In this document: in pieces, positions 5,854-53,101 of the stretch
Layout: every line of letters begins with the position of its first letter
Position numbering within the stretch: position 1 is the first letter of the stretch
Assembly (NCBI GenBank): GCA_000146465.1
Contig: CP001950.1
Reading direction: 5' to 3' (one strand)
DNA: 64,000 nucleotides
The notes under the pieces: model-generated
What the model saw: only the letters and a program-made list of their open reading frames with translations
What the model was told of the DNA's origin: nothing
Databases searched by the model: none
Made by a program: the position numbers and the translations under genes

Positions 5854-5926
5854 TTCTACTGTTCTTTGAGACTTCTGGAAAATATTATACTAATGTAGGG
5901 AAAAAAAAGGATAAAATTATATCCAT

Positions 5927-6889
5927 ATGAAGCTGAGACCAAGAAGAATAAAGAAGAGATGTTTAGTTTTACTGATTATTTTGTTTAATCTCCTACTGGT
6001 TCTTCTTGTGAAGCATAAAAACAAAATGAACATAGGAAACAAGGTGGATCTTGGTCGTTTGAAATGGTTTGGAACTGGTACAATAGTGGTGTCGGCGATG
6101 GAAATGTTCCAAGACGTGGGGTTTTCCGATGCCATCTCGAAATCTGAGTTGATTTCCACAGACGTTCAAGGACAAGGAGACGTTGTGGATTCCATACTGA
6201 GCCGTGTAAACGTCGAGGTTAGGGAGATTCTACTCATAGATACAAGGAGACTTAGAGGCATGAACCGTACTGTTTTCCCAAGGTTTGAGAAAGAGAGGGC
6301 AAACTACAGTCTTGGAATAGACTATATTGAAGAATTGGCCAAGGAATTTATCAGGAGAATAGACAATGGAAGAGTTAAGTACCCATTTGGTAGTAACACA
6401 GCAAGAGAATATGTAATGAGGATAAAGTCGTTTACCAAGAGGCATACCAAGGGAGAAGACGATAGCGAGATTATAAAGCTAGTAAACAAGGTGTTTCCAA
6501 CCATTGAGATATCATTCTACACATACATAATGATGGTTCTACTCAACATTCGAGAGATGATTGTTGAAGATTTTGATTCAATTAAGGAAATATTGAAGAC
6601 AAGAAAGATATATAGCATCAGTAACGACAAGATAAATCAGCTTGGAGGAATGATCATGAGAGCCCGGGCTTTCAACGACGGAATACCCGAGTGGAATTTA
6701 TGCAATGCATGCGATCAAGTCTTTTTTGAAGAAGATCGCGCCGATTTACAAAAGCTTACGTGTGATGATGTTATATGTAGGAGATGTTTAAAGCAATCCT
6801 TCCTGTATTCTGATGATGAGTTCTGCATAAAGTGCGGGACTGAATACGACATTTTACCTGGAAATCGCTTTAAAGATTTACTTGATTAG
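5927..6889 (+). CDS. Hypothetical type-II/signal-anchored membrane protein with a C-terminal RING-like cysteine cluster.
   Basis: N-terminus 'MKLRPRRIKKRCLVLLIILFNLLLVLLV' (signal anchor). C-terminus 'CNACDQVF...(16)...CDDVICRRCL...CIKCG'. The TAG stop at 6887-6889 directly abuts the next gene's ATG. Confidence 0.45.
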   Translation: MKLRPRRIKKRCLVLLIILFNLLLVLLVKHKNKMNIGNKVDLGRLKWFGTGTIVVSAMEMFQDVGFSDAISKSELISTDVQGQGDVVDSILSRVNVEVREILLIDTRRLRGMNRTVFPRFEKERANYSLGIDYIEELAKEFIRRIDNGRVKYPFGSNTAREYVMRIKSFTKRHTKGEDDSEIIKLVNKVFPTIEISFYTYIMMVLLNIREMIVEDFDSIKEILKTRKIYSISNDKINQLGGMIMRARAFNDGIPEWNLCNACDQVFFEEDRADLQKLTCDDVICRRCLKQSFLYSDDEFCIKCGTEYDILPGNRFKDLLD

Positions 6890-20127: not shown

Positions 20128-21363
20128 TTATTTACTTGTGAATGGGAATTCGACAGGTTTTAGAATCAGGCCTATGAGTATTGCAAAAATGAAGATAGCA
20201 ATAGGAAGCGTCATATGAAGGATATTGTATCTTCCGGACATTCTATGTACTCCAACAAAACCATCAAAAGAGGAGAAATAAACCGATTCGTTCATAAACC
20301 CTACTCCCGTTATTGGAACATTGTAAACTTTTTTTCTCCCACTTAGAACACATTTGTTGAATAGGTAGATGTAACCATCTGCGGTTCCAACAACCGTCCA
20401 CTGGCCTTCACACGACATTGTTGTGATTTTTGGGATGCTGTAGATCTTTTCGTGCACCTCCTGAAAGTACAGCTTGGAATCCTTTCCCTTTAAGTAATAA
20501 ACAAGCATTTCATTGTTGTGAGCTATTCTCCCAATCTCCTTTTCATAGGAATACTTTTTGGAATTGTATACAAAAGTGTATCCTCCATCTTCGTAAACAA
20601 TCTTATGGACTAATCCTCTAGTTATGAAAAATCCTTCCCAGTTGTTAGCTATGTCAGACTTTCCTTCCTCTCTCTTGAAAATAATCCTTCTATCCTTCCT
20701 GAAAGGTCTGTATGTATACTCTTCATGAGACTCATCATTGAGCAAGGATCCATTTACTTTTTTTCTTTTCCTTTCAGGTTTCAGCACCTCATCTAATGAA
20801 TCTGGAGAACTTACCACATCATGGAATCCATACAGCTTTTTATCACTAATGATATATAAATCCTTGGCAAATACTTGGGAAGATATCTTTTTCTTTACTC
20901 TTTTGATAAGCGTGAGATTGCTGCCATCAAATATTAACAAGTAGAAGAATTCTTCCCCTAGGGCAGTAATATAAAGTTTCGAACAATCATCTTCTGTTTT
21001 GTTTTTTGTGTCTTTGTTATCTGGAACCAAGTCTTTACAACCTGAATTATCTTCCGAAGAGTCCTTATTGCTGGCACCTTCTATATCCTCTGAACTCCGA
21101 GCAGAGGAAGAAAGGCTTGCCTCATCATATTCATCCCATGACATATCATCCTCTCCTACCTGAAGAAATTCATCTTTGGTGTTGCAGACCGCTATATCCA
21201 CAATAATTTCGTCTGTTGAATAATAGGCCAGCTCTTTGAAGCGAAAACTCTCCAGAACCTTAACTCCATTGGACTTTCCAAATTCCTTTTCTCCCCCTCC
21301 TCCTCCTACAATAACAAATTCTCCCTTTACTTGCAATGTGAATACAGGAAAAGAAACCTTCAT
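20128..21363 (-). CDS. SEC12: Sec12/PREB-type Sar1 guanine-nucleotide exchange factor (type II ER membrane protein).
   Basis: N-terminus 'PVFTLQVKGEFVIVGGGGGEKEFGKSNGVKVLESF' compared with human PREB '[33 protein letters not shown]'. WD-like body. C-terminal TM anchor 'LPIAIFIFAILIGLIL'. Confidence 0.7.
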   Translation of the reverse strand: MKVSFPVFTLQVKGEFVIVGGGGGEKEFGKSNGVKVLESFRFKELAYYSTDEIIVDIAVCNTKDEFLQVGEDDMSWDEYDEASLSSSARSSEDIEGASNKDSSEDNSGCKDLVPDNKDTKNKTEDDCSKLYITALGEEFFYLLIFDGSNLTLIKRVKKKISSQVFAKDLYIISDKKLYGFHDVVSSPDSLDEVLKPERKRKKVNGSLLNDESHEEYTYRPFRKDRRIIFKREEGKSDIANNWEGFFITRGLVHKIVYEDGGYTFVYNSKKYSYEKEIGRIAHNNEMLVYYLKGKDSKLYFQEVHEKIYSIPKITTMSCEGQWTVVGTADGYIYLFNKCVLSGRKKVYNVPITGVGFMNESVYFSSFDGFVGVHRMSGRYNILHMTLPIAIFIFAILIGLILKPVEFPFTSK

Positions 21364-24085: not shown

Positions 24086-25477
24086 CTAGTCTTTTATCCC
24101 ATGCTTCTTTTTATGCTTTTCACTATATTTGTAATCAAAAAATAACTCTTCATTCTTATCTATATCTCTACTGGCATAGAATCCGATTCGCCTGATCCCA
24201 TTCACAAGCAGAACAAGTGCATTTAGGTTAGAATTTTTCTTCGAATGATTTATAAATCTAGACTCGTTTCCTATGAACCTGGAGTCGATGACATAGAGAG
24301 GAACTCCTTCCCTACTGTACAGATCAAACAAGTATGAACATCCTTTCAAATCATAGAAAGTCCCTCTTCTTTCTGCTTCCTCGTTACTTATTATCTCTCC
24401 CACATACTCAATGATAAACTTTCCCTTGGATATCTTTTCCTTGGCAAACAGGCCATATCCTTCTATTTTGCTAGACGACACATATATTGGCGACTTCTTA
24501 CCCAACTGTATATCTCTGTTTCCGCACTGGTTGCATGAACACGTCTGAATACATTCTCTCATTGCTTGTCTACATCTACATTTATTGTCGCATGCCGAAG
24601 AGCATCTACATCCTATGAAGAAGTTTTTGCATCCCGCACAAAGACAAGACATTTCACAGTTGGTCTTGTTAGAGATGCATACACATCCATTCTCTTTAGT
24701 ACAGTTTCCAGAATGGTCGCAAGGTGTAAAAAAGACATTGAAATCAACATTGTTCTTGCTCTTGCTTTCTATCAAATACTTGTGACGTCCTGGCGGAATA
24801 GCACAAGAATCTTTTATTTTTGTACAAGGAATGTATTTCTTATACCTAAAGTAGAAAAGCAGGGAAGCTATACATTCATACCCTTGAGACTCCATACAGG
24901 CCTCATAAAGGGCGTTATAAGCATTAAAGTCAAGCTCTTCCTTAGTGGATTCCTTGCATGTGATTTTCATTTTCTTGCATATATCTCCACAGATGTCTCT
25001 AGCCTCTACAAATGCATTTGTTGGATTCTTCTCAAAACCTACAGGCTTTATGCAAATTCCTTCTGTCTTGGAGTGCCATCTACATCCAAAAATAAAGCAT
25101 ACATTACAAAAGATTCTTCTCATTATTCGAAGTCCATCATCTTTAACACATTCCTCACGGAAACTTGATCTGTCCCAAACATCCAACTTCTTAGGAAGTG
25201 TCCCTTTAACAACTTCCTTATCATATGAATAGCATTTCTCTATAAATCCCGTGTTCTTGAATTCTGTGAGATTTATAAATCCTGAGGCACCCGGGATATA
25301 TGGAATGAATCTTAAAATAGGATCATCCTCTGTTTTTATGCTTGTATTAGTAAAGGTAAAGAAAGTACTTCGAGTTTTTGGTTCTATTCTAGGAATCACT
25401 ATCTTCTTAACGGAGGGATGGAAGCCGTTGGGTCTTAGATGGTTTTCGGTTGTTGGATTAGTGTTATTGCTTATCAT
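24086..25477 (-). CDS. EZH: E(z)/EZH-type histone H3K27 methyltransferase (CXC pre-SET + SET), the PRC2 catalytic subunit.
   Basis: Cys-rich CXC 'CDHSGNCTKENGCVCISNKTNCEMSCLCAGCKNFFIGCRCSSACDNKCRCRQ...CSCNQCGNR'. SET domain 'GLFAKEKISKGKFIIEYVGEIISNEEAERRGTFYD...NHSKKNSNLNALVLLVNGIRRIGFYASRDIDKNEELFFDYKYS' is closely parallel to EZH2. The track start 25489 is TTG. The ATG is at 25477. Confidence 0.85.
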   Translation of the reverse strand: MISNNTNPTTENHLRPNGFHPSVKKIVIPRIEPKTRSTFFTFTNTSIKTEDDPILRFIPYIPGASGFINLTEFKNTGFIEKCYSYDKEVVKGTLPKKLDVWDRSSFREECVKDDGLRIMRRIFCNVCFIFGCRWHSKTEGICIKPVGFEKNPTNAFVEARDICGDICKKMKITCKESTKEELDFNAYNALYEACMESQGYECIASLLFYFRYKKYIPCTKIKDSCAIPPGRHKYLIESKSKNNVDFNVFFTPCDHSGNCTKENGCVCISNKTNCEMSCLCAGCKNFFIGCRCSSACDNKCRCRQAMRECIQTCSCNQCGNRDIQLGKKSPIYVSSSKIEGYGLFAKEKISKGKFIIEYVGEIISNEEAERRGTFYDLKGCSYLFDLYSREGVPLYVIDSRFIGNESRFINHSKKNSNLNALVLLVNGIRRIGFYASRDIDKNEELFFDYKYSEKHKKKHGIKD

Positions 25478-25745
25478 CTTGGCCTCCAAAGCCCTTTTTT
25501 TCTTTTCAATCCTATATTTTTAAATCTTGGTACCTGGCTTGATGATGTCCTGCAAGGTAATTTGTTTGTGTTATCTCCAAGACCCATGGGAAACAAGAGA
25601 CGGCCAAGCTTTGAACAGGAGTTTATTGACTCATTTGTAAGTGATGAAGTTATCAACTGGAAATTTGACCCAATTCTTCTCGATGGAGAGCTTAAGGCTC
25701 GTTTAAGCCAGGAATAGATATTAACTGCAAATTTTCCTCCCCAGA

Positions 25746-26141
25746 ATGCAAGTATCTACTTGGCCACTTCCTCCAAGATTCAAGAAGAAGGAACCGCCAA
25801 AAATACCGTCCTCATACACAATCTTTGGTGTAGGATATAAGGTAGAAAACGGAGAGCCCACAAGCACTTCATTTTCTTCCGTAGAATTCGATAAAAGCAG
25901 ACTCAAAGATCTTCTTAACCTTTCCTTTTCCACATTTGTTGAGCTGCTAACATTTCCTCTCGACCATCAAGAGCTTATAGAAACAATAGGTAGCATACAT
26001 CTTGAAATTAACCAGATTCTCAACGGAGCTAAAAAGATGGAGGCTGTTTCTGAGATTAGAAGAATTAAGAATGATCATACAAGAAATAAAAACCGAATTG
26101 CCGAGGAGGTTAGAAGGGGAATATCCGACTTCAAGATATGA
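25746..26141 (+). CDS. Hypothetical 131-aa protein lying between the E(z) and EED genes.
   Basis: ATG-initiated ORF (MQVSTWPLPPRFKKKEPPK...). No recognisable domain. A second small ORF (25586..25717, 43 aa) lies just upstream in another frame. Confidence 0.3.
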   Translation: MQVSTWPLPPRFKKKEPPKIPSSYTIFGVGYKVENGEPTSTSFSSVEFDKSRLKDLLNLSFSTFVELLTFPLDHQELIETIGSIHLEINQILNGAKKMEAVSEIRRIKNDHTRNKNRIAEEVRRGISDFKI

Positions 26142-26167
26142 GTTATGGAATCTCAATTCTTAGGATA

Positions 26168-27103
26168 TCAGGCAAGACTTAACACTCTAAAGAAAGAATC
26201 TTCAAAAAGAATAAACATTCTGTTTCTAATTACGCGGAAGTCCCGTATCTTTCCCTTCTTGGTTGATCTTAATATTGTTGATTGGGAAGTGAATCCAATA
26301 TCATTCATCTTGAACAGAATTATGTCCTGTGATTCTGTCACTGCCACTAGCATCCCATCGTCTATCTCGAATCCCCGCAATAGTTGGCCTTCAAACTTAA
26401 CGCCTCCCACAAACTCGGTCCTTGATGTGGGTTCTACTTCCCCATATCTTGGAGAAATGATGTCGATTCTGCTTTCTCCAGAATAGAAAACCAGAAACTC
26501 TCTATAGAACCGAACACATTGAATGGGAAATTTATGGATCCTTGGCGATAAATAAATGGGTGCTACACATTGAAACTTGTTCAAGGAGGAAGGAATCCTC
26601 CAAACTCTTATTGAGCAGTCTGTTCCACCAGACGCCAGATACCTCAAGTCATCACTTACATCGATAGACAAGACATGGTCTCTATGGCCTGTGTAGCCTC
26701 CAAAGACACAGACACACTTTAGTTCCGAGACGTCCCACATCTTTATTGTTGTATCTTCACTACAGCTCAACAGATACTCATCCTTATATCTTTTTATCGA
26801 GAAAATTATCCCTCCATGGGCCTGAATATATCCAACAAATGTCCCTTTCGATAGATTCAGGACTTTTATGATTCCAAGACTTCCGCCGAGTGCTAATAAG
26901 ACATCATTCTGTCTTATAAGAAACTCACTGCATTGAAAGTTCTCGTCTGGATGCTCATCGAGAACTCTTTGGACCATCCTGAGATCGTCGGCATATGATA
27001 TAATCACAGAGGTTCTTTTTCCAACCAGCGATACTATCTCATATTCATCGCAGATACTCATAAATTCAAGATATGCATTGGGTATTTCTATTGACAAAGC
27101 CAT
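26168..27103 (-). CDS. EED: ESC/EED WD40 subunit of PRC2 (reduced, 311 aa).
   Basis: 'DENFQCSEF...LLALGGSLGIIKVLN', 'LLSCSEDTTIKMWDVSELKCVCVFGGYTGHRDHVLSIDVS' and 'GGTDCSIRVWRI' align with human EED 'DENFYTCAW...LLAVAGSRGIIRIIN', '[40 protein letters not shown]' and 'CGMDHSLKLWRI'. Confidence 0.85.
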   Translation of the reverse strand: MALSIEIPNAYLEFMSICDEYEIVSLVGKRTSVIISYADDLRMVQRVLDEHPDENFQCSEFLIRQNDVLLALGGSLGIIKVLNLSKGTFVGYIQAHGGIIFSIKRYKDEYLLSCSEDTTIKMWDVSELKCVCVFGGYTGHRDHVLSIDVSDDLRYLASGGTDCSIRVWRIPSSLNKFQCVAPIYLSPRIHKFPIQCVRFYREFLVFYSGESRIDIISPRYGEVEPTSRTEFVGGVKFEGQLLRGFEIDDGMLVAVTESQDIILFKMNDIGFTSQSTILRSTKKGKIRDFRVIRNRMFILFEDSFFRVLSLA

Positions 27104-30544: not shown

Positions 30545-33325
30545 ATGGATAGAAAACCTTCAGTAAAGTGGGAGGAGCCAGAAAGTGATCGAAAGACTGT
30601 CCCAAAAAAGATAGAAAGGCCAAGCGTCTCAACATTGGACTTTTGGAACCGGGAGCTTGAAAATCCGCTGGATTCAGATAAGGATCAAGACGAATCTACC
30701 GATATGGATGCGTTTTTCACTTCTACAGGCTGTTTGGAGAATGAAAAGGAAAGGGAATTTCTGGTGTATTCGAAATTTACTGTACGGGAAATCAAAAGAT
30801 CGACTGATTCCGTGGTGTTAGTAGGTGACAAGGTTGAATGCCATCTTTCAGGAGAATGGTGCGAGACAGAGTATAGAGTAAACGACCGGATCACTGTTCT
30901 TCACTGCATCTGTTGCAATGAGCAGGATGAAACATCTGATATTGATTACCTGGATGAGATCTTCGAGTCTGAATGTGGAGATCACTCTATGATTGAAGAA
31001 AAAGAAAATTCAGGCCAAAGTATCTTGAGAAATCGAATCTTTGTTACAAATACGGAAAACTACCTCCTCATTGAGGATGATCCCATCTCCATCACAACAC
31101 TGTGTGAGTCCTTGTCATGCAAAAATAAGCGCTATATCAACACCAAGATTGCCTCTATAAGGTTTTCTTATACCGACCTAAGAGTTCTTATTGGAGTAGT
31201 GGTTCATTCTGTGATGGAAAAGGCTCTAGTTGAAAGGAACTTCTCTTTTGACTTCTTAACAAGGCAAACGAAGGCAAAGATTTCTAAAAATGTTGCTCTG
31301 ATGCATAGATGTGGTATTGATGAAAGGACAGCTCTTAATGAATCACTGAAGTTAATAAAGAACATATACCTGTTCCGGGATCACAGGTTTGAGGTTGTTG
31401 AGACGGAAAAAAAGCTCATGTCACTCTTGTTTAACATCAAAGGGAATGCAGATGCAATTGGGGAAGACTCGGTCCTCGAGATAAAGAGCACCAAGTCTCA
31501 AAGAGCAGAACATCGTGCACAAGTAATCTTGTATGCTCTCATGCTTAGGGAAAAAACAGGAAGAGACTTTTCTCCGTGTTTGTACTATATTCCTACAAGA
31601 GAGATGGTTGAAGTTAAGCTAAAGCATCAAGAAATTCGAAGTCTGTTAAACCTTAGAAATAAGATTGCTGTTACAAGTGAACCGTGTGAATGTACATGCG
31701 ACGATTTTAGTTGCAATGCTCTGCTTAAGATAAAATCTCTCGACGAGACACATTTTCTAAGAAGTCAGCTAGACGCAATAGATTCAGAAGAAGGAAGGAC
31801 AGCAGAGTCATTTATTCCAGTTATACTTCGTTATCAAAATAATACTTTAGTTAGGCTGGATATTCAAGGAGTTTTTTCTCCCAACAACATATATCTGAGT
31901 TTGTTCAGCTCTGACTTTGTAAGAATCTCAAAGGGGATTGTTGAGGAGATTAATGGAAATAGACTATTGGTAAGACTAAACGAAGAAATACTTTTCAAAG
32001 ATAGAGAAAAGCTTTATGTGTCTTTTGGAGTCTCAGACATATTCTTCAGGTTTATGAGGTTTTCACTTGTTCATATTGCCTATCCAAGATACTGCACACC
32101 AGAGGTGATAGGAGGATTCACCCTCCCTATGGAAAAGATGGGCCTTGGTTTGGAAAACGGTTTTGATGAGCCAAACTCGGGAGACGGAGATTCTCTTTTG
32201 ACTGAAGAATTGGAGGAGTGTCTTAAAAGTGATAAAGAGGTTTTGGAAAATGACAAGGAAAAAATCAAAGCGGATGGGAATGGTGGAGATAAAACCTCTT
32301 CTAACATATCAGAAATACATACGAGTTATGAGTTGGACGATCACAAAATCACAATACCCGAAGTTTATCGGGAGGAGTTCTTAAAGCTCAACGATGATCA
32401 ACGCTCTGCATTATTTTTGTCCCTGAACTGTAAGAACTACAGAATTATACATGGAATGCCGGGGACGGGAAAAAGTACCCTAATATGCCTCTTAATTAAG
32501 ATTCTTGTTTATCTCAAAAAGAAAGTTCTTCTGATATGCTACACGAATCTTGCACTGGCAAATATTACAAAGAAGTTAAGCGGAATTAGAGTGTACACTG
32601 CCGGAAAGGAGGGCTTTTTCTTCAAAACAACCGAAGAGGCCAAGTTGTTCTTTGATAATATTGAACTGGTAGTAGGAACATGTTTTTCGTTTTCCGATCC
32701 TATCTATTTAAATAGACGGTTTGACTTCTGTGTAGTTGATGAGGGTTCTCAAATGCACCTACTTCTAACCTTGATACCTATAAGCATTTCTTCGAAGTTT
32801 GTGATAGTAGGGGATCATCTCCAACTAAAACCTCTTTCTAGATGTTCTAAGGACCTGAGTATTTCACTTTTTGAGTATTTACTTGGAAAAGATTACTCCA
32901 AACTTAGGACACAATACAGGATGGGAAATGAGATTATGAGGCTGTCAAACACCCTTTTCTACAGTAACCAACTTCTTGGGGAGAAGAGGCCATCGAAGGT
33001 TGAGTTTATAGACACCGATATCATAGATTTCATGGCATTAGTACCTTCTTTTGAAAAATGCACTATCCTCTGCTATTTCAATGCACAGGTAGATACTATA
33101 AGAGAAATGACTAGATGTATTGTAGAAACGGTGGATAGGTTTCAAGGGAGTGAAAGTGACAAGGTTGTTGTTGTCTTTGATCCTATTTCCAAGTGTGAAG
33201 TGATGGAGAGCAGCGAAAGGCTTAACGTGGCATTGACAAGGGCCAAGAAGCACCTTGTTCTTGCAGGGAGCAGGACAAAAATGATGGAAATAGACATATT
33301 GAAGAGACTTATAAGTATCTTGTAA
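30545..33325 (+). CDS. DNA2: DNA2 nuclease/helicase (N-terminally truncated relative to yeast; 926 aa).
   Basis: PD-(D/E)XK nuclease region 'DAIGEDSVLEIKSTKSQRAEHRAQVILYALML' with a Cys cluster 'CECTCDDFSC'. SF1 helicase motifs 'IIHGMPGTGKST', 'VVDEGSQM', 'QYRMGNEIMRLSN' and 'LNVALTRAKKHLVL'. Confidence 0.8.
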   Translation: MDRKPSVKWEEPESDRKTVPKKIERPSVSTLDFWNRELENPLDSDKDQDESTDMDAFFTSTGCLENEKEREFLVYSKFTVREIKRSTDSVVLVGDKVECHLSGEWCETEYRVNDRITVLHCICCNEQDETSDIDYLDEIFESECGDHSMIEEKENSGQSILRNRIFVTNTENYLLIEDDPISITTLCESLSCKNKRYINTKIASIRFSYTDLRVLIGVVVHSVMEKALVERNFSFDFLTRQTKAKISKNVALMHRCGIDERTALNESLKLIKNIYLFRDHRFEVVETEKKLMSLLFNIKGNADAIGEDSVLEIKSTKSQRAEHRAQVILYALMLREKTGRDFSPCLYYIPTREMVEVKLKHQEIRSLLNLRNKIAVTSEPCECTCDDFSCNALLKIKSLDETHFLRSQLDAIDSEEGRTAESFIPVILRYQNNTLVRLDIQGVFSPNNIYLSLFSSDFVRISKGIVEEINGNRLLVRLNEEILFKDREKLYVSFGVSDIFFRFMRFSLVHIAYPRYCTPEVIGGFTLPMEKMGLGLENGFDEPNSGDGDSLLTEELEECLKSDKEVLENDKEKIKADGNGGDKTSSNISEIHTSYELDDHKITIPEVYREEFLKLNDDQRSALFLSLNCKNYRIIHGMPGTGKSTLICLLIKILVYLKKKVLLICYTNLALANITKKLSGIRVYTAGKEGFFFKTTEEAKLFFDNIELVVGTCFSFSDPIYLNRRFDFCVVDEGSQMHLLLTLIPISISSKFVIVGDHLQLKPLSRCSKDLSISLFEYLLGKDYSKLRTQYRMGNEIMRLSNTLFYSNQLLGEKRPSKVEFIDTDIIDFMALVPSFEKCTILCYFNAQVDTIREMTRCIVETVDRFQGSESDKVVVVFDPISKCEVMESSERLNVALTRAKKHLVLAGSRTKMMEIDILKRLISIL

Positions 33326-33772: not shown

Positions 33773-35917
33773 ATGAAAGGTTATAAGCGACAATCGAGGG
33801 AATCGACTATTGTGAAGAAATTTCTGAAAGAACATCTGAACGAAGGAACTACAAAGTCTACATGCGAAAAGATATATCAGCTTTCACAGCGTGTGGCTAA
33901 AGCTAGAATGAGCAAAAGACTCCTTTCGGAGATCATAAAGGTATCTAAAGTTTTTGTAGATGATTATGCAGAAAAAACCCGGGGAATGAGCTCAAAAGAT
34001 ACAGGAAGATGTCTTTACTCGTTTGATTGTCTTTGGAGTAGAAGCATGAATCTCTTTGGGAAAGTGTTCTGTCCAATTATACGAACTAGAAGGAAGTTTA
34101 TAGACCGTTTATCTTCAAAGTTATTTATGCAATTTGTGAAGAACATCGAGGATAAGATAGTAAAATTTATAATAGACAATATAAGAGAGGAAATACAGAA
34201 AGTAGAAACTAATAGGAGAACAAGTAAACCTGAATCCAGTAGTTTGGAATCCTCTTCTAACAAAAAGCAGAAGCTAAGCCAAGACGAGCCTGGAAAATTG
34301 GGGGAGCTTAAGGAAAGGGACTTTGGTGTATTTGAATCGCTTTCCAGAAAGGAGAAAATTTCAACTTTAATCGGCATACTTCAAGGTAGGGGATGCTTCG
34401 ATCTGTTTCTAGAAAGAGTTGTTGGGAGCTTAACTTCGGTCCTTGATGAAAAGATAGATAGGGAAGGTCTTGGGATTTTAGCAATAAAGAGACTTATTGA
34501 CGAGCAGAGAAAAGCCGGGTATATGAAGGACTACTTCTATGCAGTTGAATCGAATCTGATGAGAAAAATAGTTATAAAATATACTAATGAGGAGATTTTC
34601 AAAATGCTGGACAAAGAGGATGAAATGAGATTATGTATGGGATTTTTTTGTGCCTCCAACGAGGAGAAAAGGCTTATGGAGGCTTTGGATGTGTATTTCA
34701 GGAAAATAATGGGAAATCCTTCTATTGATGACTTTATTGGAAAATACTACTGGATCTACCTCAAGTTTAGAGAACTAGAAAATAGCAAGGATGGAGGATA
34801 CGAAAGGATTATAGAAGGAATTAGAAACTGTAAGAAAGACATTCTAAAGTTAGATGCAGAGTGTGTTGTTGAGTGCGTATGCAGATGGACGGATTCGTTT
34901 CTAAGAGGAAAAATAATCATCCAGGAGAACACCATTGAAGGGATGGAAAGTCCAATTTTTATTCCAGGGAGCGAAAGGAAGGAAGTGATAAATGTAGAAA
35001 GAGTTTTAAAGAAAATAGGGATAGACTCTCTTCTTGAAGGTAATGGATGGAGAGAGTATCTTGTATTGAATATTTTCGATATGATTGGAGAAATGTTTCG
35101 TTTCTGCGATTACAAGGAGATGTTTGAAACGACATTACAAGGCAGATTGGGAAGTAGACTTGTCTCTGGATCGTCTATATCAATGGACTGGGAGATTCGA
35201 CTAATTGATAAGATTGATTCCGGTAGAAGCACCATAGACAAGATGAGATGCATGATAAAAGACTTTATGGAAACAGAACAATTCATGGGCCATGATATTC
35301 TGCTTCTTCGGGGATGTAAGTGGCCTAGATATGAAGAGACTATCCTTAGGATCCCAGATGTTGAGGAAGTCAAGAAAAGGTACAATCACGTGGTAAAAAA
35401 CAAAAGAAAGATAATCAGATGGAACGATCTGTTATCATCCTGTGAAATTGAGTTTTTGGGACGTATGGTGAGAGTTACATTGCCTCAATACCTAATGATG
35501 AAGCTTTTGGTTGAAAAGGATAGGACGGCTGAGGATTTGAAGATTTGCAAATCCTGGGACAAGAATCTTGAAGTATTGGTTAAGAAAGGGTTGGTGAAGG
35601 TGGAAGGAAAAAGACATTTTTTGAACATGGATTATTGGAAAGGGGACTTTCCCATGGACTCGATGATTCCTGATATGTTCCCGTTGCTAGGACCGCAGAA
35701 AATCATAAAGATGTTTGATGAATCTGAGTCTTATAAGGATCTTTTAGATTGTAAAATAATAAAGGAAATGAAAGCTAATAAGACACTGAGCAAAAGTGGT
35801 CTCAAAGAACTGCTAAATAAGACGTATCCACAGGAAATTCTCGATGAAAGAATAGACAGCTTGGCAAACCGAGAGTTTTTGAGTGTTGAGGGAGAGAATA
35901 TAAAGTATGTTCCATGA
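33773..35917 (+). CDS. Cullin family protein (E3 ubiquitin ligase scaffold).
   Basis: Helical repeat body. C-terminal cullin-homology/neddylation region ('MRCMIKDFMETEQF', 'RLGSRLVSGSSISMDWEIRLIDKI', C-terminus '...ILDERIDSLANREFLSVEGENIKYVP' compared with the cullin tail 'IKKRIESLIDREYMERD...YVA'). The track start 33737 is TTG. The first ATG is at 33773. Confidence 0.65.
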   Translation: MKGYKRQSRESTIVKKFLKEHLNEGTTKSTCEKIYQLSQRVAKARMSKRLLSEIIKVSKVFVDDYAEKTRGMSSKDTGRCLYSFDCLWSRSMNLFGKVFCPIIRTRRKFIDRLSSKLFMQFVKNIEDKIVKFIIDNIREEIQKVETNRRTSKPESSSLESSSNKKQKLSQDEPGKLGELKERDFGVFESLSRKEKISTLIGILQGRGCFDLFLERVVGSLTSVLDEKIDREGLGILAIKRLIDEQRKAGYMKDYFYAVESNLMRKIVIKYTNEEIFKMLDKEDEMRLCMGFFCASNEEKRLMEALDVYFRKIMGNPSIDDFIGKYYWIYLKFRELENSKDGGYERIIEGIRNCKKDILKLDAECVVECVCRWTDSFLRGKIIIQENTIEGMESPIFIPGSERKEVINVERVLKKIGIDSLLEGNGWREYLVLNIFDMIGEMFRFCDYKEMFETTLQGRLGSRLVSGSSISMDWEIRLIDKIDSGRSTIDKMRCMIKDFMETEQFMGHDILLLRGCKWPRYEETILRIPDVEEVKKRYNHVVKNKRKIIRWNDLLSSCEIEFLGRMVRVTLPQYLMMKLLVEKDRTAEDLKICKSWDKNLEVLVKKGLVKVEGKRHFLNMDYWKGDFPMDSMIPDMFPLLGPQKIIKMFDESESYKDLLDCKIIKEMKANKTLSKSGLKELLNKTYPQEILDERIDSLANREFLSVEGENIKYVP

Positions 35918-36034: not shown

Positions 36035-36754
36035 ATGTTTCTCCCTTGGAGTGCAATGAATTCAGAAGCTCGGATTAAAAAGATAATGGAGGAGACAGGA
36101 TGTTCACTAGAGGTTGCAAAAAAAGCGGAGCAAGAATCCCAAGGTAACTTGAATGCGGCTATAGAAATGGCTAAGAAAAAAGGAAATGTTTTGTATTCAG
36201 GGGGAAACAGTGGGCTATATGTTGAGGAAAACCCATCGCGAAAGTCAATAACTCAATACAAAAATGGAATCCTGGTGGAGGATAAGTTCTATGATTTTTC
36301 CGTAGATAATAATATCAGACTCAAGGACATGCTGGAAAAAGGAACTTTTGATGCATCACTTCTTGTTTTGGAGGGAGATACAGCCGAAGTCATCTACAGT
36401 GAAAGGTTGGATGAGGAATACAAAGAAAAAAAGCCCCAGGAACCTTCTAAGGTAACAGCCTCGTTTGTAGGGGAAGGAAGGCAGATTGGGAACTCCAGCA
36501 GAGATATTCCTTGTAATAATATTGAAGACACGTTAGAAATAGTCCATGATGGTGATACAGTATTCAAAGTTATGATAGGGAGCAAAAGAGTCACGGTGAA
36601 AATGCACAAGTTTCAAACAGTTGGCGATTTCTTCGATTATATGGAGAGATATTATGACTTCGGGCTTGTTTTGTCTACCAATGGAAAAGAGATTCCCCCT
36701 AGCCATAGTGTTGAAGAAATATCAAACAAACTTGTTCTCCTTAGCAGAAGATAG
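36035..36754 (+). CDS. SHP1: UBX-domain Cdc48/p97 cofactor of the Shp1/p47 type (UBA-like + SEP + UBX).
   Basis: N-terminal UBA-like 'ARIKKIMEETGCSLEVAKKAEQESQGNLNAAIEM'. SEP domain 'ITQYKNGILVEDKFYDFSVDNNIRLKDMLEKGTFDASLLV'. C-terminal UBX beta-grasp region. Confidence 0.75.
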   Translation: MFLPWSAMNSEARIKKIMEETGCSLEVAKKAEQESQGNLNAAIEMAKKKGNVLYSGGNSGLYVEENPSRKSITQYKNGILVEDKFYDFSVDNNIRLKDMLEKGTFDASLLVLEGDTAEVIYSERLDEEYKEKKPQEPSKVTASFVGEGRQIGNSSRDIPCNNIEDTLEIVHDGDTVFKVMIGSKRVTVKMHKFQTVGDFFDYMERYYDFGLVLSTNGKEIPPSHSVEEISNKLVLLSRR

Positions 36755-36849: not shown

Positions 36850-37515
36850 TTATTTTGTTTCGGGAGGCCGAAAACTCTCACAGGCATTTCTAAGTCTGAT
36901 AACATTGTCTTTACTGAAAGAAAAGCTGAGAAAACCAAACATTTCGCAGGGAAAATACAAACTTGCATACACTAACTCTATTTCTTTATACGGTTCTCTA
37001 CCTAGAATAAGTATCTTGTCCATCCTCTCCACAGAAAGTTTCCATAGCTTATTAATACATGGGACAATACAGTCTTCCCCACTGTAAACGAAAATCTCTT
37101 CTCCCTTATCTCCTTCAGTAGCTTCTGGAGTATCTCTCGCAACTTTAATGAGTCCTTTTTCTTGGAGTAGAGCAAGTACCCCGTACATCCTAAGGTACAG
37201 ACTTGGGAAATGGAAGTTGTAGTCTAGAACTTCAAACAACTCTGACTCATAATTAAAAATGTTTTTCTTATTGGATCCCGGGAGCCTTTTTATAAGAGTA
37301 TCTATATTGCCATGGAGATCCTCACACTTAGAAGCAACTATTACTATCGCATATATGACATCCCTCATTTCTTTTTTGCCTCTAAGCATTTTACCAATGG
37401 CCCTATCGAATATTTGTATAGATGTACTCCTTACCGTAACAGGTAAGTCTAATTTTATGCATGCCTCTATAATCTCCCATCTGTATCCTATGATCCTCTC
37501 TACAGAGTTTTCCAT
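36850..37515 (-). CDS. Cyclin-box protein of the cyclin C/H family (minimal, 221 aa).
   Basis: Cyclin box 'IIEACIKLDLPVTVRSTSIQIFDRAIGK...DVIYAIVIVASKCEDLH' followed by 'YESELFEVLDYNFHFPSLY', typical of transcription-type cyclins. ATG verified. Confidence 0.5.
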   Translation of the reverse strand: MENSVERIIGYRWEIIEACIKLDLPVTVRSTSIQIFDRAIGKMLRGKKEMRDVIYAIVIVASKCEDLHGNIDTLIKRLPGSNKKNIFNYESELFEVLDYNFHFPSLYLRMYGVLALLQEKGLIKVARDTPEATEGDKGEEIFVYSGEDCIVPCINKLWKLSVERMDKILILGREPYKEIELVYASLYFPCEMFGFLSFSFSKDNVIRLRNACESFRPPETK

Positions 37516-39162: not shown

Positions 39163-40353
39163 CTAGTTTTCCTCCTTCCTTCCAATTTTAATTTCAGGAA
39201 GAACAAGTAAAGGACCTCCAACTCCTCTTCTTTTCAATTCCCAATATTCCAATACTTTCAAAAGATCTGGGAAGTTTCCTTCCTTTTGGGTATATGCTTT
39301 AATCTTTGAAAGAATGGATGGTGTGGCAACCGGCTGTAGATTGCAGAGCTTTCTGAATAGCGTAACCTGAGGGCATGCCATTGGAGCCTTTTTTCGGATT
39401 ATTGGAGGATTTCGTAACTTTTCATATCCAAAATACCTTATTTTGGTCACTTTTCTGTAGCCTAATTCATATGGACTTCTTTTCAAAGGACTATGGTCGA
39501 TACAATAAGATATTCTATTTTCCAAATCAAAGTAACATTTGTCTAGAGCACATGACACATGGTATTTCCTAGAACACATAAAATACGAGCAGCATATCAC
39601 AGTTCCAACAGTTTTTTCACAGAAAGAACATCCGGATTCTTTGGTATAGGAGCTAACATCAATGGGGTCTTTTGATAATGGATGGCCAAACGAGAGAGAT
39701 CTGTTGAACATAGCACACAAAACATGGCCCCATCTGTTGTCGGATGTCTGCTTGAAGATGCCGTCTGAAGAAGGGCAGAAAGAACACTCTTTTAGGTCCT
39801 TTCCATATATACATCCCTTGCACAACCAAAAATCACTCAGATCTTGTATTCCATAGCAGTTTTCATGCACACATATTCCACATCCTTGGCATACAAAAAG
39901 AGTTCCGGTGCGTTCCGATGCATGCCTTGTACAGATATCACAGAAGGAAGTGGGTTCTATAGGTTTTACGTGCCTGGATACTAAATCCTGCACGAATAGG
40001 AACCATTCCTTTTCTAATCTGTCGATAACTAACTCAAAAACATCTTTGGAGATATCAATTCCCGATCTCTCCAAATAAAGTTGATCATAGCTGTCTAGTT
40101 TATACACGATAGACTCAAAGAAGTTTCCTTTTTGATTCCTTCTAGTTGTTTTCTTGCTATCCGATTCACTTTCTGATGCATAGGTGCTTTTTGAAATAAT
40201 CTGATGCATTTTCTCGATCTCCAGATTATGATATATCGATCTGTAATCACGTTCCTCCCTCGGAACGCCTCCAAGGCATTTGGAAGTAGACATTTTTGGG
40301 TAGTAAGATTCCCCATAAGGAATGGAAAATTTTTTTTCTCGGCACATAACCAT
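39163..40353 (-). CDS. PHD-zinc knuckle-PHD (PZP) finger protein of the BRPF/JADE/Nto1 HAT-scaffold family.
   Basis: PHD1 'CDICTRHASERTGTLFVCQGCGICVHENCYG'. Zn knuckle 'WLCKGC...CSFCPSSDGIFKQTSDNRWGHVLCAMF'. Extended PHD 'CSFCEKTVGTVICCSYFMCSRKYHVSCA'. The track start 40374 is GTG. The first ATG is at 40353. Confidence 0.6.
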   Translation of the reverse strand: MVMCREKKFSIPYGESYYPKMSTSKCLGGVPREERDYRSIYHNLEIEKMHQIISKSTYASESESDSKKTTRRNQKGNFFESIVYKLDSYDQLYLERSGIDISKDVFELVIDRLEKEWFLFVQDLVSRHVKPIEPTSFCDICTRHASERTGTLFVCQGCGICVHENCYGIQDLSDFWLCKGCIYGKDLKECSFCPSSDGIFKQTSDNRWGHVLCAMFNRSLSFGHPLSKDPIDVSSYTKESGCSFCEKTVGTVICCSYFMCSRKYHVSCALDKCYFDLENRISYCIDHSPLKRSPYELGYRKVTKIRYFGYEKLRNPPIIRKKAPMACPQVTLFRKLCNLQPVATPSILSKIKAYTQKEGNFPDLLKVLEYWELKRRGVGGPLLVLPEIKIGRKEEN

Positions 40354-44587: not shown

Positions 44588-45826
44588 CTAAATAAAGTCT
44601 ATGGTGTTTCTGTCAAGTCTCTCTGTCTCCAACTCTAATCTATTTCGGAGAGCGCTCTCCTTATTCCTTTCATTCAATAATTCATTGTTCCTGATTTTCA
44701 GAATATTATACATCCTCTCTAACTCTTCTATATTCTTTTTGATTTCTTGAGTCCTCGTCTCGTCTAGCTGGAGTTCTCTGTTGCCTATATCATACTCCTC
44801 ATCATATTTCTTGATTCTGTCCGAGAATATTTTCTCTTCATCCTCTAGAAGCGCCAGCTTAGACCTCTGGTCATCCATCATCTTCGAAAGTTTTAAAAGC
44901 TCATTTCTAGATAGTCTTATAAGGGCCAATGTCCTTCCTCTTTGGATCTCAACTTCCTTTATGTTAGTTTGTAAGTTTCTTAGATGGTTCTTCTTTGTAT
45001 GAATCCTCGACATCATATTATCCTTCATTTTCTGCGTATCCTGTATCTTCTCAGTAAGCTGGTCTATGTCCTGAAGAAGCTTGTCAATGCTATTTTGCAG
45101 CATGTTTTCTTTTTGCTTGCTCTGTGCCATCTTTAGAACAATAAATGACTTCTTTGCTCCCAGTTCGTCTGATTGATTAGTGTTTTCGCCCATTCCAAAC
45201 CCCATCCCATCTCCCAAGGGAGATCTAGTATATCTAGGGACCTCCATGAAGGAATCCCCACTCTCTCTAAACGACAATGGTATGTATTTGCTCTGCTCAG
45301 GCCTATATCCCGACAAAATATCTTTTGGGAGATAACCCTGTGTTCCAGACCCACTTCCATTAAACATCTGTTGATTACCTCGGTTAAATAGGCTTCTAAT
45401 GTGCAATGGGTTGAGTAATGAACTTTCTTGGTAACTCATTCCCAACTCTGGGGTCGTATCTTCATCCATCGAGCTTGGTGTTGACCTTCCCATGTACTCA
45501 GGCTTGGAGGAGTTCAATTGTAGGCGATTTTCCTCGTCGTCTTTCTTACTTAAGCTATCCTTTCCCTTTCCAAATAGTTTATCTTCGCCTCGGTTTCCTT
45601 CATCATATTTAGAAGGTATGTTCTCATTGTCTCCAACAACTCTTTTTATCCCCTTGGTGTTAGAAAGCAGCACACCATCTCTGCTGTTTTTTATAGTTCC
45701 TCCAAGAGCATTTATCACTTTTCTGGCCATGTCTGGGTCTTTGTTCGGTCTGTCAGTGACTCCAAGATCGTCTACAACAACTATTTTGGATAGACATACC
45801 TGAATCAAAACTATTATTGCTATCAT
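44588..45826 (-). CDS. Hypothetical protein with an N-terminal signal peptide, a low-complexity S/G/N-rich middle and a C-terminal coiled coil (candidate secreted/structural protein).
   Basis: N-terminus 'MIAIIVLIQVCLSKIVVV'. No other TM segment. C-terminal 150 aa is heptad-rich (LQDIDQLTEKIQDTQKMKDNMM...). Confidence 0.5.
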   Translation of the reverse strand: MIAIIVLIQVCLSKIVVVDDLGVTDRPNKDPDMARKVINALGGTIKNSRDGVLLSNTKGIKRVVGDNENIPSKYDEGNRGEDKLFGKGKDSLSKKDDEENRLQLNSSKPEYMGRSTPSSMDEDTTPELGMSYQESSLLNPLHIRSLFNRGNQQMFNGSGSGTQGYLPKDILSGYRPEQSKYIPLSFRESGDSFMEVPRYTRSPLGDGMGFGMGENTNQSDELGAKKSFIVLKMAQSKQKENMLQNSIDKLLQDIDQLTEKIQDTQKMKDNMMSRIHTKKNHLRNLQTNIKEVEIQRGRTLALIRLSRNELLKLSKMMDDQRSKLALLEDEEKIFSDRIKKYDEEYDIGNRELQLDETRTQEIKKNIEELERMYNILKIRNNELLNERNKESALRNRLELETERLDRNTIDFI

Positions 45827-48782: not shown

Positions 48783-49988
48783 ATGGAATTCTTGGACAGG
48801 TTAATTCTTGGATCCAGAACTCCAAGATATGCAGACGAAGCTCTTTTTCCTTCAAGGACTTACAAAAAACCTATGTGTAATAGAAAACATTGCAATACCT
48901 CATGTACTTCTAGAGTGCTCGAAGAATTTGAATTCTGGGCTTATTTTCTTTCTGAAAAGGAGCCTAACAGAAGAGAGGTAAGAAAGAAAATTCATACGAT
49001 GAGCAAAGACTTGAGATTTTCAATTTGGATCAAATGTGTTGGATCTCGGGAAAAGTTTATAAGGATGAAGGAGATAGGACTTTCTAATACGAAGGAAGCC
49101 CGAGATGTTGAAAGCAAAGAAGATGGGAATAGGAAGTTGGACGATAAGGGTTTGGTAAAGTTCATATTGGACATGTGTAGAGATGCGGAAGGAAATAACC
49201 AAGAAGCTATATTCAATATTCTAAAGAATTTAGAAAGAGACTTTTCTTCAATATCTAATAAAAAGCTCCTTGCATTGACCATAATGCACATTCTGGAGCT
49301 TCCATATGCCTCCCCACAAACTACATATCGCTTTATTCATTCCTTAATGGAATCTCACAACTTCTGTAGTGTATTCTCAGGATTCAATGAGTCTGAACTA
49401 GATAATGGAATGGATCAAGATGATGAGAATAGCGTCCATTCGGCATTTTGGAAGTTCATCATTTCTGAGAATGCTTTGGTGTTTGACAGAATAATAGATC
49501 TCTTAGTTTGTTATGAGGGTGCGAATATAGCGTCTGTTCCCACATTTCTTAAGAAGCAGACCGGAGATAATGATGTTCAGAAGTGGGTTGAATTCATTTC
49601 TGTGAGATCCAATCTCGACAAGCTAGGAAGTGTTTTCGACAGTGAGAGGTTAGAAGGTCCTACTGAGGTGGAAGACAGAGAAGAGACATACTTTGACTTT
49701 TTAGTCATCCAGAACGAGACGATAAAGGCCCAAGAAATGATGAAAATAGAAACCAATGAAAAGTTGAATTCTCTTAAAGAAGAGAGAGATGAGCTTTATG
49801 CACAAAAGGTCAATCTTATGGAAGCATGTTCTTCCTTGGAGTCGGATCTCAAGGAATATCAAAAAGAATACGTTAAGAAAGTAGAAGAGATGCTCCATAG
49901 TGTTGAAGATAAGTGCGAGAAGTATGAAAAAGAAAATATGGAGCTTAAGGCAAAAGTGGATGAAAAAGAACAAGTGAAAGATTTGTAA
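48783..49988 (+). CDS. Hypothetical protein with a C-terminal coiled coil (possible TBC/RabGAP-like N-terminal region, very tentative).
   Basis: ATG-initiated 401-aa ORF. The C-terminal 100 aa is heptad-rich (KEERDELYAQKVNLMEA...KENMELKAKVDEKEQ). Confidence 0.4.
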   Translation: MEFLDRLILGSRTPRYADEALFPSRTYKKPMCNRKHCNTSCTSRVLEEFEFWAYFLSEKEPNRREVRKKIHTMSKDLRFSIWIKCVGSREKFIRMKEIGLSNTKEARDVESKEDGNRKLDDKGLVKFILDMCRDAEGNNQEAIFNILKNLERDFSSISNKKLLALTIMHILELPYASPQTTYRFIHSLMESHNFCSVFSGFNESELDNGMDQDDENSVHSAFWKFIISENALVFDRIIDLLVCYEGANIASVPTFLKKQTGDNDVQKWVEFISVRSNLDKLGSVFDSERLEGPTEVEDREETYFDFLVIQNETIKAQEMMKIETNEKLNSLKEERDELYAQKVNLMEACSSLESDLKEYQKEYVKKVEEMLHSVEDKCEKYEKENMELKAKVDEKEQVKDL

Positions 49989-53000: not shown

Positions 53001-53101
53001 AGTATCTTAATGTTGAGTTCCGGGAAAAAAGAAGCAATATTAAGGATATCGATGCAGGAGTAGCCCATAAGTTCCTCGATGAAGACCTAGGGGAAAGATA
53101 A
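50039..53101 (+). CDS. SMC3: SMC3 cohesin ATPase (reduced, 1020 aa).
   Basis: Walker A 'IIVGRNGSGKSSIVSAIRFVL'. 'KRVVDAKKDEYMLDNKTISRDELGGLLQGHGFATSSPYFIVLQEEISELA' compared with SMC3 '[50 protein letters not shown]'. Hinge 'GYVYDLISIPNELANAFEAVVGNALFNIVVES'. Signature 'LSGGQKAVVALSLIFSMQ'. Walker B 'LYVFDEIDANLD'. Confidence 0.8.
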   Translation: MIPLSLMHIKQIRLKNFKSFKDETLVEFTENVNIIVGRNGSGKSSIVSAIRFVLCGEKYNCESRMELIHEGSRASEEEASVEIVFDSGSPESLGKGFSIKRVVDAKKDEYMLDNKTISRDELGGLLQGHGFATSSPYFIVLQEEISELAVLSDRRRYELIKDVAGVSEYEKDRENSMQTLEETKQSENKIELLLERIEEKLRGFENDKKEAELCLELEKEKRRLEYGYIEREVGEINEEICKIENLGSNNLEESSEENEDYGCEIREVESKLERLGRRRKELHVDEKYKDKESEIENEIKNIEKKRNDLLGSLEIEKKTLKSLKRNEMETFVRSGYIKYLIVFLETLGNREVSSEEIEISKRALKEKIEKLKDFNNLDHSGKFEEKRNIEELIERRKHLWREERRLKLSEESIGGIVKSQEGRLIAMGNIGLDVYKQIKNEKGVLGYVYDLISIPNELANAFEAVVGNALFNIVVESEDVASNVLKKMKDLRFRVTFMPLNRIEYKEENEIEDSNVISLTSQLKCNQQYKPLLRYITKNFYLCPDLKQALHLSKKYGINVVTLSGEVVAREGTITGGYERRNMVFQEYKRICKESRKIKGEMIKVQHELGKINKEIEEVKMHKECGSDESRYYESLKSSVLFLQEKIKILEEVVKEKLDGNGINGKLRKLREEEKDLKLKGIWIGGEIKKVGMRIEEAEIGVRNLNEGVGRLREELSKSSMYREAKEIEKEILELKDKKRAVKEMMFNEENMGLFAKPKKINVEVENLVRRKHMLINKRNELCERIGISDFRNLERLFPDKKKEDIMNEIVRINERIRGLSVVNRVAVSQWESYIEQKNSIRKRLEELKDDKRHISEFIAELDSRKEGAMGKAMSVVEEGFSEFYSRLTEGGKAELYSYESSIGIKVGKDVGTSLLSGGQKAVVALSLIFSMQRVNPSPLYVFDEIDANLDAQSRQKVSMLIKEMSERNGSQFIITTFRKELLNCGDKYLNVEFREKRSNIKDIDAGVAHKFLDEDLGER

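Follow-up and report, generated by a model that had tools for sequence, protein, structure and literature searches.

In solved structures of Polycomb repressive complex 2 (PRC2), a belt formed by the BAM, SAL, MCSS and SANT2L segments wraps the WD40 protein EED and activates the SET domain, and the canonical complex requires a VEFS domain for activity. The two genes analyzed here lie in a 64,000-nucleotide stretch of DNA (the whole of which is hereafter called the window; contig CP001950.1, assembly GCA_000146465.1) belonging to chromosome IX of the microsporidian Encephalitozoon intestinalis ATCC 50506, and are likely to code for two components of a reduced PRC2, namely its catalytic subunit E(z)/EZH and its WD40 scaffold EED/ESC:

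24086..25477, minus strand: E(z)/EZH-type histone lysine methyltransferase gene, 463 amino acids as annotated, telomere-to-telomere (T2T) locus tag GPK93_09g17040
26168..27103, minus strand: EED/ESC-type seven-bladed WD40 gene, 311 amino acids

Both open reading frames (ORFs) were recovered at these coordinates, strand and lengths, and all the peptide strings that the initial annotation had quoted in favor of an E(z)-EED pair are found in them. The description of the two proteins as miniaturized is borne out by their sizes (463 amino acids versus ~750 for E(z), and 311 versus 441 for EED, in animal PRC2), with the caveat that the exact start of E(z) translation is in doubt. The SET protein is 100% identical to an annotated E. 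intestinalis protein (P0001) that GenBank names "SET domain-containing protein," a generic name explained by the fact that Pfam recognizes only the SET domain, and the WD40 protein is 100% identical to another (P0058), named "WD40 domain-binding protein."

Several published sources have a bearing on this pair. Supplementary-table rows in Sharaf 2022 (PMC9018016) record three components in Antonospora, namely E(z), ESC and a VEFS-box protein, and none in Nematocida, while Microsporidia are absent from the discussion in the text of that paper. The E(z) and ESC of Antonospora locustae listed there are direct orthologues of the proteins described here, with only SET recognized in the E(z), as is the case in E. 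intestinalis, and they are accompanied by a protein combining VEFS-box and zf-Di19 domains (PMC9018016). A survey of fungal SET genes mentions microsporidian E(z)-type genes, reports one unclassified SET gene each in E. cuniculi and Ordospora, and recovers from Nosema apis no SET gene other than one of the E(z) group; from this literature, E(z) appears likely to be the sole SET-domain gene of the genus Encephalitozoon. Database entries also hint at a Polycomb identity, since the E. hellem orthologue of the SET protein carries the NCBI label EZH2 and three orthologues of the WD40 protein carry the JGI label "polycomb protein EED." The novelty implied in the initial annotation was therefore too strong, as microsporidian E(z) and ESC already figure in survey tables and annotations. 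On the other hand, the T2T genome paper (2023, PMC10158259), whose Table 1 and Table S4 are the source of the locus tag, lists 09g17040 as "Clr4/EZH2," and assigns it the role of H3K9 methyltransferase in a CLRC-like pathway, with Polycomb, H3K27 and EED nowhere mentioned. Dedicated studies of PRC2, H3K27me3 or SUZ12 in Microsporidia were not found in the literature.

Assignment of the SET protein to the E(z) family

The SET protein combines a catalytic lobe and an N-terminal region that can both be compared with E(z) proteins. The names BAM, SAL and the like given to the aligned motifs follow EZH2/PRC2 structures:

24128..24460, minus strand: SET domain (residues 340-450), Pfam PF00856 at 1.2e-24, with intact GxG, YxG, RFINHS and ELFFDY motifs
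24503..24745, minus strand: Cys-rich CXC pre-SET domain (residues ~245-325), aligned Cys for Cys with EZH2 and insect E(z)
25073..25126, minus strand: MCSS-like zinc motif "MRRIFCNVCFIFGCRWH" (residues 118-135), aligned to "FHTLFCRRCFKYDCFLH" of EZH2 and insect E(z)
25295..25399, minus strand: BAM-like "KIVIPRIEP" and SAL-like "EDDPILRFIPY" motifs (residues 27-61), colinear with insect "VINAVTP...VEDETVLHNIPYMG"

Across 16 microsporidian orthologues, the set to which all statements of invariance for this protein refer, the catalytic motifs GYG, EYVGE, RFINHS and ELFFDY are invariant, as are residues G340, G342, Y358, G360, N410, H411, S412, E444, L445, F447 and Y449 of the SET domain, and the CXC domain displays 15 invariant Cys, one near-invariant Cys and an invariant H255. 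Two substitutions with respect to human EZH2 are seen in microsporidian E(z): W624 of the "GWG" motif is replaced by Tyr, and A687 by Ile (in "RFINHS"). In a phmmer search against all PDB sequences, the top matches are EZH2 and EZH1 (~1e-38), with residues 245-458 of the query aligned across CXC and SET, ahead of SUV39H2 (5e-25), EHMT (4e-23) and ASH1L (1e-19), the best SET proteins outside the EZH family. The closest database matches outside the Microsporidia are insect E(z) proteins, a canonical example of which shares 41% identity over CXC and SET by BLASTP (E = 5e-47), and an hhalign comparison of the same region between the 16 orthologues and insect E(z) yields E = 1.3e-59 and 45% identity. 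A neighbor-joining tree of SET domains, built on a limited sampling of sequences, groups 11 microsporidian and three insect E(z) proteins in a clade with 73% bootstrap support, separate from SUV39/EHMT, ASH/NSD/SET2-like and MLL-like domains. Lastly, the best 40 PDB matches of the AlphaFold2 (AF2) model in Foldseek are EZH2, EZH1 or Chaetomium Ezh2, with NSD2, SETD2 and ASH1L coming after them. The placement with E(z), and not with Set1, Ash1 or SUV39, that the initial annotation had put forward thus finds support in the PDB ranking, hhalign, the tree and Foldseek alike.

The N-terminal half of the protein provides weaker evidence than CXC and SET for the same assignment, in the form of an E(z)-specific belt order (BAM, SAL, MCSS, SANT2L). 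With CXC and SET removed, the N-terminal halves of microsporidian and insect proteins align by hhalign over 262 colinear columns (probability 85%, E = 6.3e-6), pairing "VIPxIEP" with the beta-addition motif, "EDDPxLRFxPY" with the SET-activation loop "EDETVLHNIPY," "FCNVCxxFxCxxH" with the MCSS zinc motif, and "CIASL...C" with SANT2L. Within these motifs, V27, I28, P29, L55 and P59 of the BAM/SAL segment are invariant, and so are F123, C124, C127, F130, C132 and H135 of the MCSS-like segment. The hhalign comparison also pairs a microsporidian N-terminal helix with the EED-binding helix; this helix, "EEYxxxxxxILxxN," occurs in the majority of microsporidia and lines up with insect residues 34-56. 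The SANT1L/SRM segment, in turn, is cut to ~45 residues in Encephalitozoon. Comparison with E. hellem indicates that E(z) and EED are both under purifying selection, with a dN/dS (ratio of non-synonymous to synonymous divergence) for E(z) of ~0.12, similar to that of neighboring genes, these figures being rough because dS between the two species is saturated.

These results bear directly on the published alternative, in which the gene would encode a Clr4/SUV39-type H3K9 enzyme of a CLRC-like complex (Cul4-Rik1-Dos1), its mark would be read by Swi6/HP1, and the WD40 neighbor would be an unrelated propeller. Besides listing the gene as "Clr4/EZH2" and discussing it as an H3K9 enzyme, the T2T genome paper reports a match to S. 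pombe clr4 at 1.5e-20 and a gene complement that includes HP1/Swi6-like and DDB1-like proteins as well as cullins (PMC10158259). The ARK context of H3 K9 also fits this alternative. The likeness to S. pombe Clr4/CLRC comprises the SET fold, a presumed role in heterochromatin and an HP1/Swi6-like reader in the genome. The table that reports the clr4 match, however, lists far better ones to PANTHER E(Z) (3.9e-67) and EZ_DROME (2.8e-39), with Su(var)3-9 at 2e-24 (PMC10158259), so that E(z) is the best match by 15-40 orders of magnitude, and because S. pombe lacks E(z), clr4 is simply the closest SET protein that this species can offer. Furthermore, Pfam reveals neither a SUV39-type pre-SET (PF05033), even at E <= 10, nor a chromodomain, and the protein lacks a Cys-containing post-SET, ending in ...ELFFDYKYSEKHKKKHGIKD with no Cys after ELFFDY. 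It possesses instead a CXC domain, the belt motifs found only in E(z) and, as shown below, a neighbor that is specifically EED. These comparisons contradict the family assignment made in the T2T genome paper; at the level of family membership, the Clr4 reading is largely refuted, and we regard it as extremely unlikely.

The start of the E(z) gene deserves separate consideration, as a homopolymer lies just upstream of it:

25495..25501, minus strand: A7 run upstream of the annotated E(z) start

The addition of a single A to this run would bring the ATG at 25587, further upstream, into frame and yield a protein of 500 amino acids, which is the annotated length of E. hellem E(z). A one-nucleotide error that shortened the protein from 500 to 463 amino acids is nonetheless disfavored, because the run is the same in a second assembly, and the extension is disfavored too by a 10-nucleotide indel in E. 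hellem and by an internal Met at the matching position. Taken together, the identical run and the indel suggest that the upstream extension is probably non-coding, and the conservation seen further upstream belongs to a plus-strand ORF of 43 codons described below, and not to E(z). It may instead be the E. hellem and E. romaleae E(z) annotations that are over-extended. The palindrome CCATGG at 25584-25589 carries an ATG on both strands, which corresponds to the start of the 43-codon ORF on the plus strand and to the E(z) start of the E. hellem annotation on the minus strand.

A "hypothetical protein" of 473 amino acids from the midge Chironomus riparius (P0034), encoded on a 62-Mb contig, is also E(z)-like with only SET recognized. 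In the SET tree it adjoins microsporidian E(z) and not insect E(z), and its presence in the midge assembly could reflect microsporidian contamination or transfer.

EED, its methyl-lysine cage and the histone substrate

A single-sequence search with the WD40 protein is confounded by generic WD repeats; a search with a profile of 13 orthologues was also made. EED is the best natural protein in that search (7e-40) and the only one aligned as a single colinear stretch (profile positions 25-268 to EED 114-392, 140 bits), with designed repeat proteins outranking it through the sum of seven ~37-bit matches, all to the same pair of blades. The first 92 residues, which do not form canonical WD repeats, match only EED (1.3e-5, the next family being at 0.01) and contain a signature common to animal EED, "VQ..DEDxDENF.C...LALGGxLGIIK." The AF2 model is an all-beta structure of high confidence (pLDDT 90.5, pTM 0.90), and model and Foldseek together identify a seven-bladed WD40 propeller. 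Foldseek places 1-43 are taken by human EED chains (E = 1.8e-21 to 9.5e-19, TM-score 0.84-0.88), followed by LIS1 (8e-16) and then Chaetomium EED. An hhalign comparison with human EED, whose sequence was validated by exact database look-up, gives a probability of 99.8% and E = 4.7e-30. Database searches with the family profile recovered additional microsporidian orthologues and no canonical EED, a limit of the word index used, and the family also includes the Antonospora protein jgi/Antlo1/1858 (P0079), which Sharaf 2022 tabulates as ESC and which the profile matches at 1e-119 with 99% coverage. Profile, N-terminal, Foldseek and hhalign evidence therefore agree with the initial annotation in ranking EED above other WD families, and sequence comparisons as a whole show both proteins to be orthologues of E(z) and EED.

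Beyond family membership, the most conspicuous feature of the microsporidian EED concerns the pocket that forms the trimethyl-lysine cage of the human protein, composed of F97, Y148, W364 and Y365, all of which are at the expected positions in the validated human sequence. Alignment of 23 microsporidian orthologues over this divergent region does not reveal an aromatic cage. The W364 position is occupied by Leu, Ile or other residues, with Phe in 3 of the 23; the Y365 position by Leu, Val, Ile, Thr or Pro (Phe in one); and the Y148 position by Gln, Arg, Leu, Ile or Thr, with a single aromatic residue among the 23 orthologues and Q57 in E. intestinalis. The strand pattern of the AF2 model supports the register at W364/Y365, with "LLRGFEID" equivalent to "WYMRFSMD." The counterpart of F97 is probably L12, a position that holds Leu or Phe in the family and lies outside the alignment. 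The positions of W364 and Y365, and probably that of Y148, thus appear to be aliphatic in E. intestinalis. This apparently cage-less EED is one of the new points of the present analysis and, together with the trimmed SRM, suggests that the stimulation loop linking H3K27me3, EED and SRM is absent.

The substrate can be assessed in the sister species E. cuniculi, in which H3 NP_597654 reads ARTKQSARK9TTGGKAPRKQLSAKSARK27GVSPA, accompanied by a second H3 that lacks K27 (supplement of PMC2939574). A methylatable K27 context, which the initial annotation had singled out for examination, is hence retained ("SARKG"), and K9 and K27 are both found in an S-A-R-K context. The identical context of the two lysines is one of several observations that would fit a different division of labor, in which E(z)-EED is the only writer, methylates both H3K9 and H3K27, and leaves the reading of both marks to an HP1/Pc-like chromodomain protein instead of EED. 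The degenerate EED cage points in the same direction, as does the fact that the single HP1/Swi6-like chromodomain protein of the genome resembles HP1 and Polycomb Pc equally (PMC10158259 Table S4). So do the survey counts of a single SET-domain gene in E. cuniculi and Ordospora and of an E(z)-group gene only in Nosema apis, although the single-gene count comes from one hidden Markov model survey that left the gene unclassified. In PMC9018016, microsporidian E(z) falls in clade II with Paramecium Ezl1, a methyltransferase of both K9 and K27 (Frapporti 2019, as cited there) from an organism for which a divergent or absent VEFS partner is reported. That placement, however, was made for Antonospora and not for Encephalitozoon, and the limited SET-only tree groups the microsporidian proteins with animal E(z). 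A dual-specificity writer is a possibility that we consider rather unlikely.

The remaining PRC2 components are represented unevenly. Among the 46 ORFs of the window, Pfam detects neither CAF1C/RbAp48 nor a histone gene at its sensitivity, while a homologue of RBBP4/Nurf55, GPK93_07g11470, is reported on chromosome VII (PF12265 at 6.5e-27; PMC10158259 Table S4), a family that serves other complexes as well. The observation in the initial annotation that no Su(z)12/VEFS protein lies near the pair holds for the ORFs of the window as judged by Pfam. The lack of Su(z)12 in the window, the heavily trimmed regulatory regions and the degenerate EED cage might all be expected if the pair were a decaying or repurposed relic, either catalytically inactive or acting on non-histone substrates. 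Such a relic would be hard to reconcile with catalytic SET motifs and CXC Cys that are invariant in 16 divergent microsporidia, with a dN/dS (~0.12) similar to that of housekeeping neighbors, or with the retention of both genes in one of the smallest eukaryotic genomes, and we deem it very unlikely.

Gene arrangement and linkage of E(z) and EED

The initial annotation described the two genes as a tandem separated by about 690 bp. The distance stands (25478-26167, 690 bp), whereas the term "tandem" is overstated, as two genes on the opposite strand lie in between:

25586-25717, plus strand: conserved ORF of 43 amino acids (MGNKRRPSFEQEFIDSFVSDEVINWKFDPILL...), head-to-head with E(z), part of the intervening DNA and not of PRC2
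25746-26141, plus strand: MED7-like gene of 131 amino acids, Pfam Med7 at 8.9e-4 here and at 0.023 in E. hellem

The Med7 matches extend from profile position 47/48 to 183/184 of 189 in both species and fall under the gathering score. Annotations of E. hellem and of a more distant relative (L006) both include this gene, the E. hellem entry carrying no Pfam assignment. The 43-amino-acid ORF has homologues in E. hellem (L001, ~5869-6003, minus strand) and in L006 (4824-4940, minus strand), where it is called as a gene of 38 amino acids; neither the E. hellem nor the E. intestinalis locus has a gene call for it. It shows ~88% nucleotide identity to its E. hellem counterpart, with 12 synonymous and four non-synonymous codon differences in 33 codons, between species whose dS is saturated elsewhere. 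Searches of Pfam and the PDB returned no match for the ORF, and a search of 1.8 billion representative proteins found only close relatives. Neither similarity nor a conserved splice signal was found that would make it the missing N-terminus of MED7, and the ORF is left unassigned. As a result of this arrangement, E(z) is head-to-head with the 43-amino-acid ORF and the MED7-like gene, EED is tail-to-tail with the latter, and the region upstream of E(z) is common to the two opposite-strand genes and not to EED. A scan of the locus for bacterial-type promoters and terminators, which is uninformative for a eukaryote, returned counts not above those of shuffled sequence.

The association of E(z) with EED can be followed in several relatives. 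E. hellem and L006 display the same order as E. intestinalis, with both genes on the same strand and genes in between, and gene order agrees gene for gene with the E. hellem chromosome sequence. In a metagenomic relative (L002), the two genes are convergent with Arv1 between them, and Vairimorpha bombi has E(z) and its EED orthologue (hhalign E = 2.6e-33) arranged head-to-head, 98 bp apart, no other neighbor from the window being kept within 8 kb. The Antonospora EED contig is too short for linkage to be judged. E(z)-EED linkage therefore survives three different local arrangements, and the occurrence of linked (Encephalitozoon/L006, L002, Vairimorpha) and unlinked (Vavraia/L007) pairs means that it has been repeatedly preserved without being universal. 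At L007, a locus otherwise unrelated to the window, a BRPF-type PHD gene lies ~2 kb from E(z).

The initial annotation had suggested that the proximity of the genes might reflect co-regulation. Microsporidian gene order is unusually stable, and the proximity could be incidental, a product of slow gene-order decay with no co-regulatory role. The two intervening opposite-strand genes and the lack of a common promoter region in Encephalitozoon, the unlinked pairs of Vavraia culicis and L007, and that stability of gene order all fit this explanation. They have to be set against the V. bombi pair, 98 bp apart and head-to-head though its other neighbors are gone, and against L002, in which orientation and intervening gene have changed and yet the pair is still one gene apart. 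We place incidental proximity at slightly below an even chance; co-regulation is plausible in Vairimorpha and unproven in Encephalitozoon.

The neighbors named in the initial annotation, CDC73 (PF05179 at 1.2e-17) and a DOA1-type protein with PFU and WD40 domains, were both confirmed, and the window carries further genes for chromatin and genome maintenance:

30545-33325, plus strand: Dna2
33773-35917, plus strand: cullin, named Cul4 in the T2T genome paper
39163-40353, minus strand: BRPF/JADE-type PHD protein (zf-HC5HC2H_2)
45967-48606, plus strand: INO80 (DBINO and SNF2)
50039-53101, plus strand: SMC protein
63230-63997, minus strand: DUF2463 protein at the right edge of the window, the InterD family of the T2T genome paper

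The DUF2463/InterD family is typical of the subtelomeric gene families of Encephalitozoon. Twelve ORFs of at least 90 amino acids in the window have no Pfam match, and a strongly divergent VEFS-type partner could sit among them:

168-563, 5927-6889, 20128-21363, 36035-36754, 36850-37515 and 44588-45826: first six Pfam-negative ORFs
48783-49988, 53159-53464, 54870-55511, 60155-60748, 60913-61668 and 61707-62732: last six Pfam-negative ORFs

A probable reduced PRC2 in Encephalitozoon

Set beside animal PRC2 (human EZH2-EED, Drosophila E(z)-ESC), the microsporidian pair shares CXC and SET regions that are 41-45% identical, the order of BAM, SAL, MCSS and SANT2L, and a seven-bladed EED with a TM-score of ~0.86 to its human counterpart; it differs in that SANT1L/SRM is nearly gone, the SBD/EBD helix of E. 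intestinalis is truncated and the EED positions equivalent to W364 and Y365 (and probably Y148) are aliphatic. Fungi and Microsporidia are related, and among fungal PRC2 systems, which include those of Neurospora and Cryptococcus, the ctEzh2 and ctEed proteins of Chaetomium thermophilum are significant matches in sequence and fold; on both counts the microsporidian proteins are nevertheless nearer to animal EZH2 and EED than to those of Chaetomium, and the fungal subunits are much larger. With respect to S. pombe Clr4, the microsporidian protein differs in lacking a SUV39 pre-SET, a post-SET Cys cluster and a chromodomain, and in having CXC, belt motifs and an EED partner gene.

In the mechanism that these comparisons suggest, the N-terminal belt of E(z), disordered on its own, would dock on the EED propeller, and the complex would make use of the chromosome VII RbAp48/Nurf55 homologue and, probably, of a divergent Su(z)12-like partner. 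The complex would then methylate H3K27 and give rise to facultative heterochromatin, for instance at subtelomeres and ribosomal DNA (rDNA), probably writing the mark without the canonical read-and-stimulate loop mediated by EED and H3K27me3. We infer both the H3K27 specificity of the enzyme and the formation of an E(z)-EED complex.

Several observations weigh against this reading of the locus as a reduced PRC2. Pfam searches of the E(z) protein at E <= 10 return only SET, the CXC (preSET_CXC), MCSS and PRC2_HTH models remaining silent, which is why those domains were established through pairwise and profile alignment; one orthologue (P0007) does match the fungal Ezh2-like CXC Pfam model, at 9e-6. 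The AF2 model of E(z) is of low confidence (pLDDT 55, with residues 1-139 below 50) and was for that reason used only in a cautious fold search, a poor model being what might be expected of a belt that folds only on EED. E. intestinalis E(z) as annotated has only a truncated EED-binding N-terminal (SBD/EBD) helix, or none, and no VEFS-box/Su(z)12 protein is found among the 46 window ORFs at the sensitivity of Pfam. The loss of the cage is itself a departure from canonical EED that depends on the alignment of a divergent region, where one residue is deleted next to Y148, which could correspond to F56 if the register is anchored on the conserved Cys. The two genes are not linked in Vavraia culicis or L007, and a search of the literature for biochemical or histone-mark data from Microsporidia found none.

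A broader proposal, for which "one writer, one reader" may serve as a summary, would combine these elements. E(z)-EED would be the only SET-domain system of the cell, the EED cage and most of SRM/SANT1 would have been lost, methylated H3K27 (and possibly K9) would be read by the HP1/Pc-like protein, and the heterochromatin attributed to Clr4 would be of Polycomb type. We advance this proposal tentatively and consider it rather unlikely.

The present comparison corrects the functional reading of what appears to be the sole recognizable histone lysine methyltransferase gene of a human-infecting Encephalitozoon species. Since it encodes an E(z) paired with EED, and not a Clr4, models of heterochromatin and of rDNA and subtelomere silencing in the parasite should be framed around PRC2. 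As a naturally minimized PRC2, the system may offer a test bed for establishing which parts of the complex are indispensable and whether or not early-type E(z) enzymes are dual writers of K9 and K27. By inference only, EZH2 inhibitors that compete with S-adenosylmethionine might act on the parasite enzyme, whereas inhibitors directed to the EED pocket should not, if the cage has indeed been lost.

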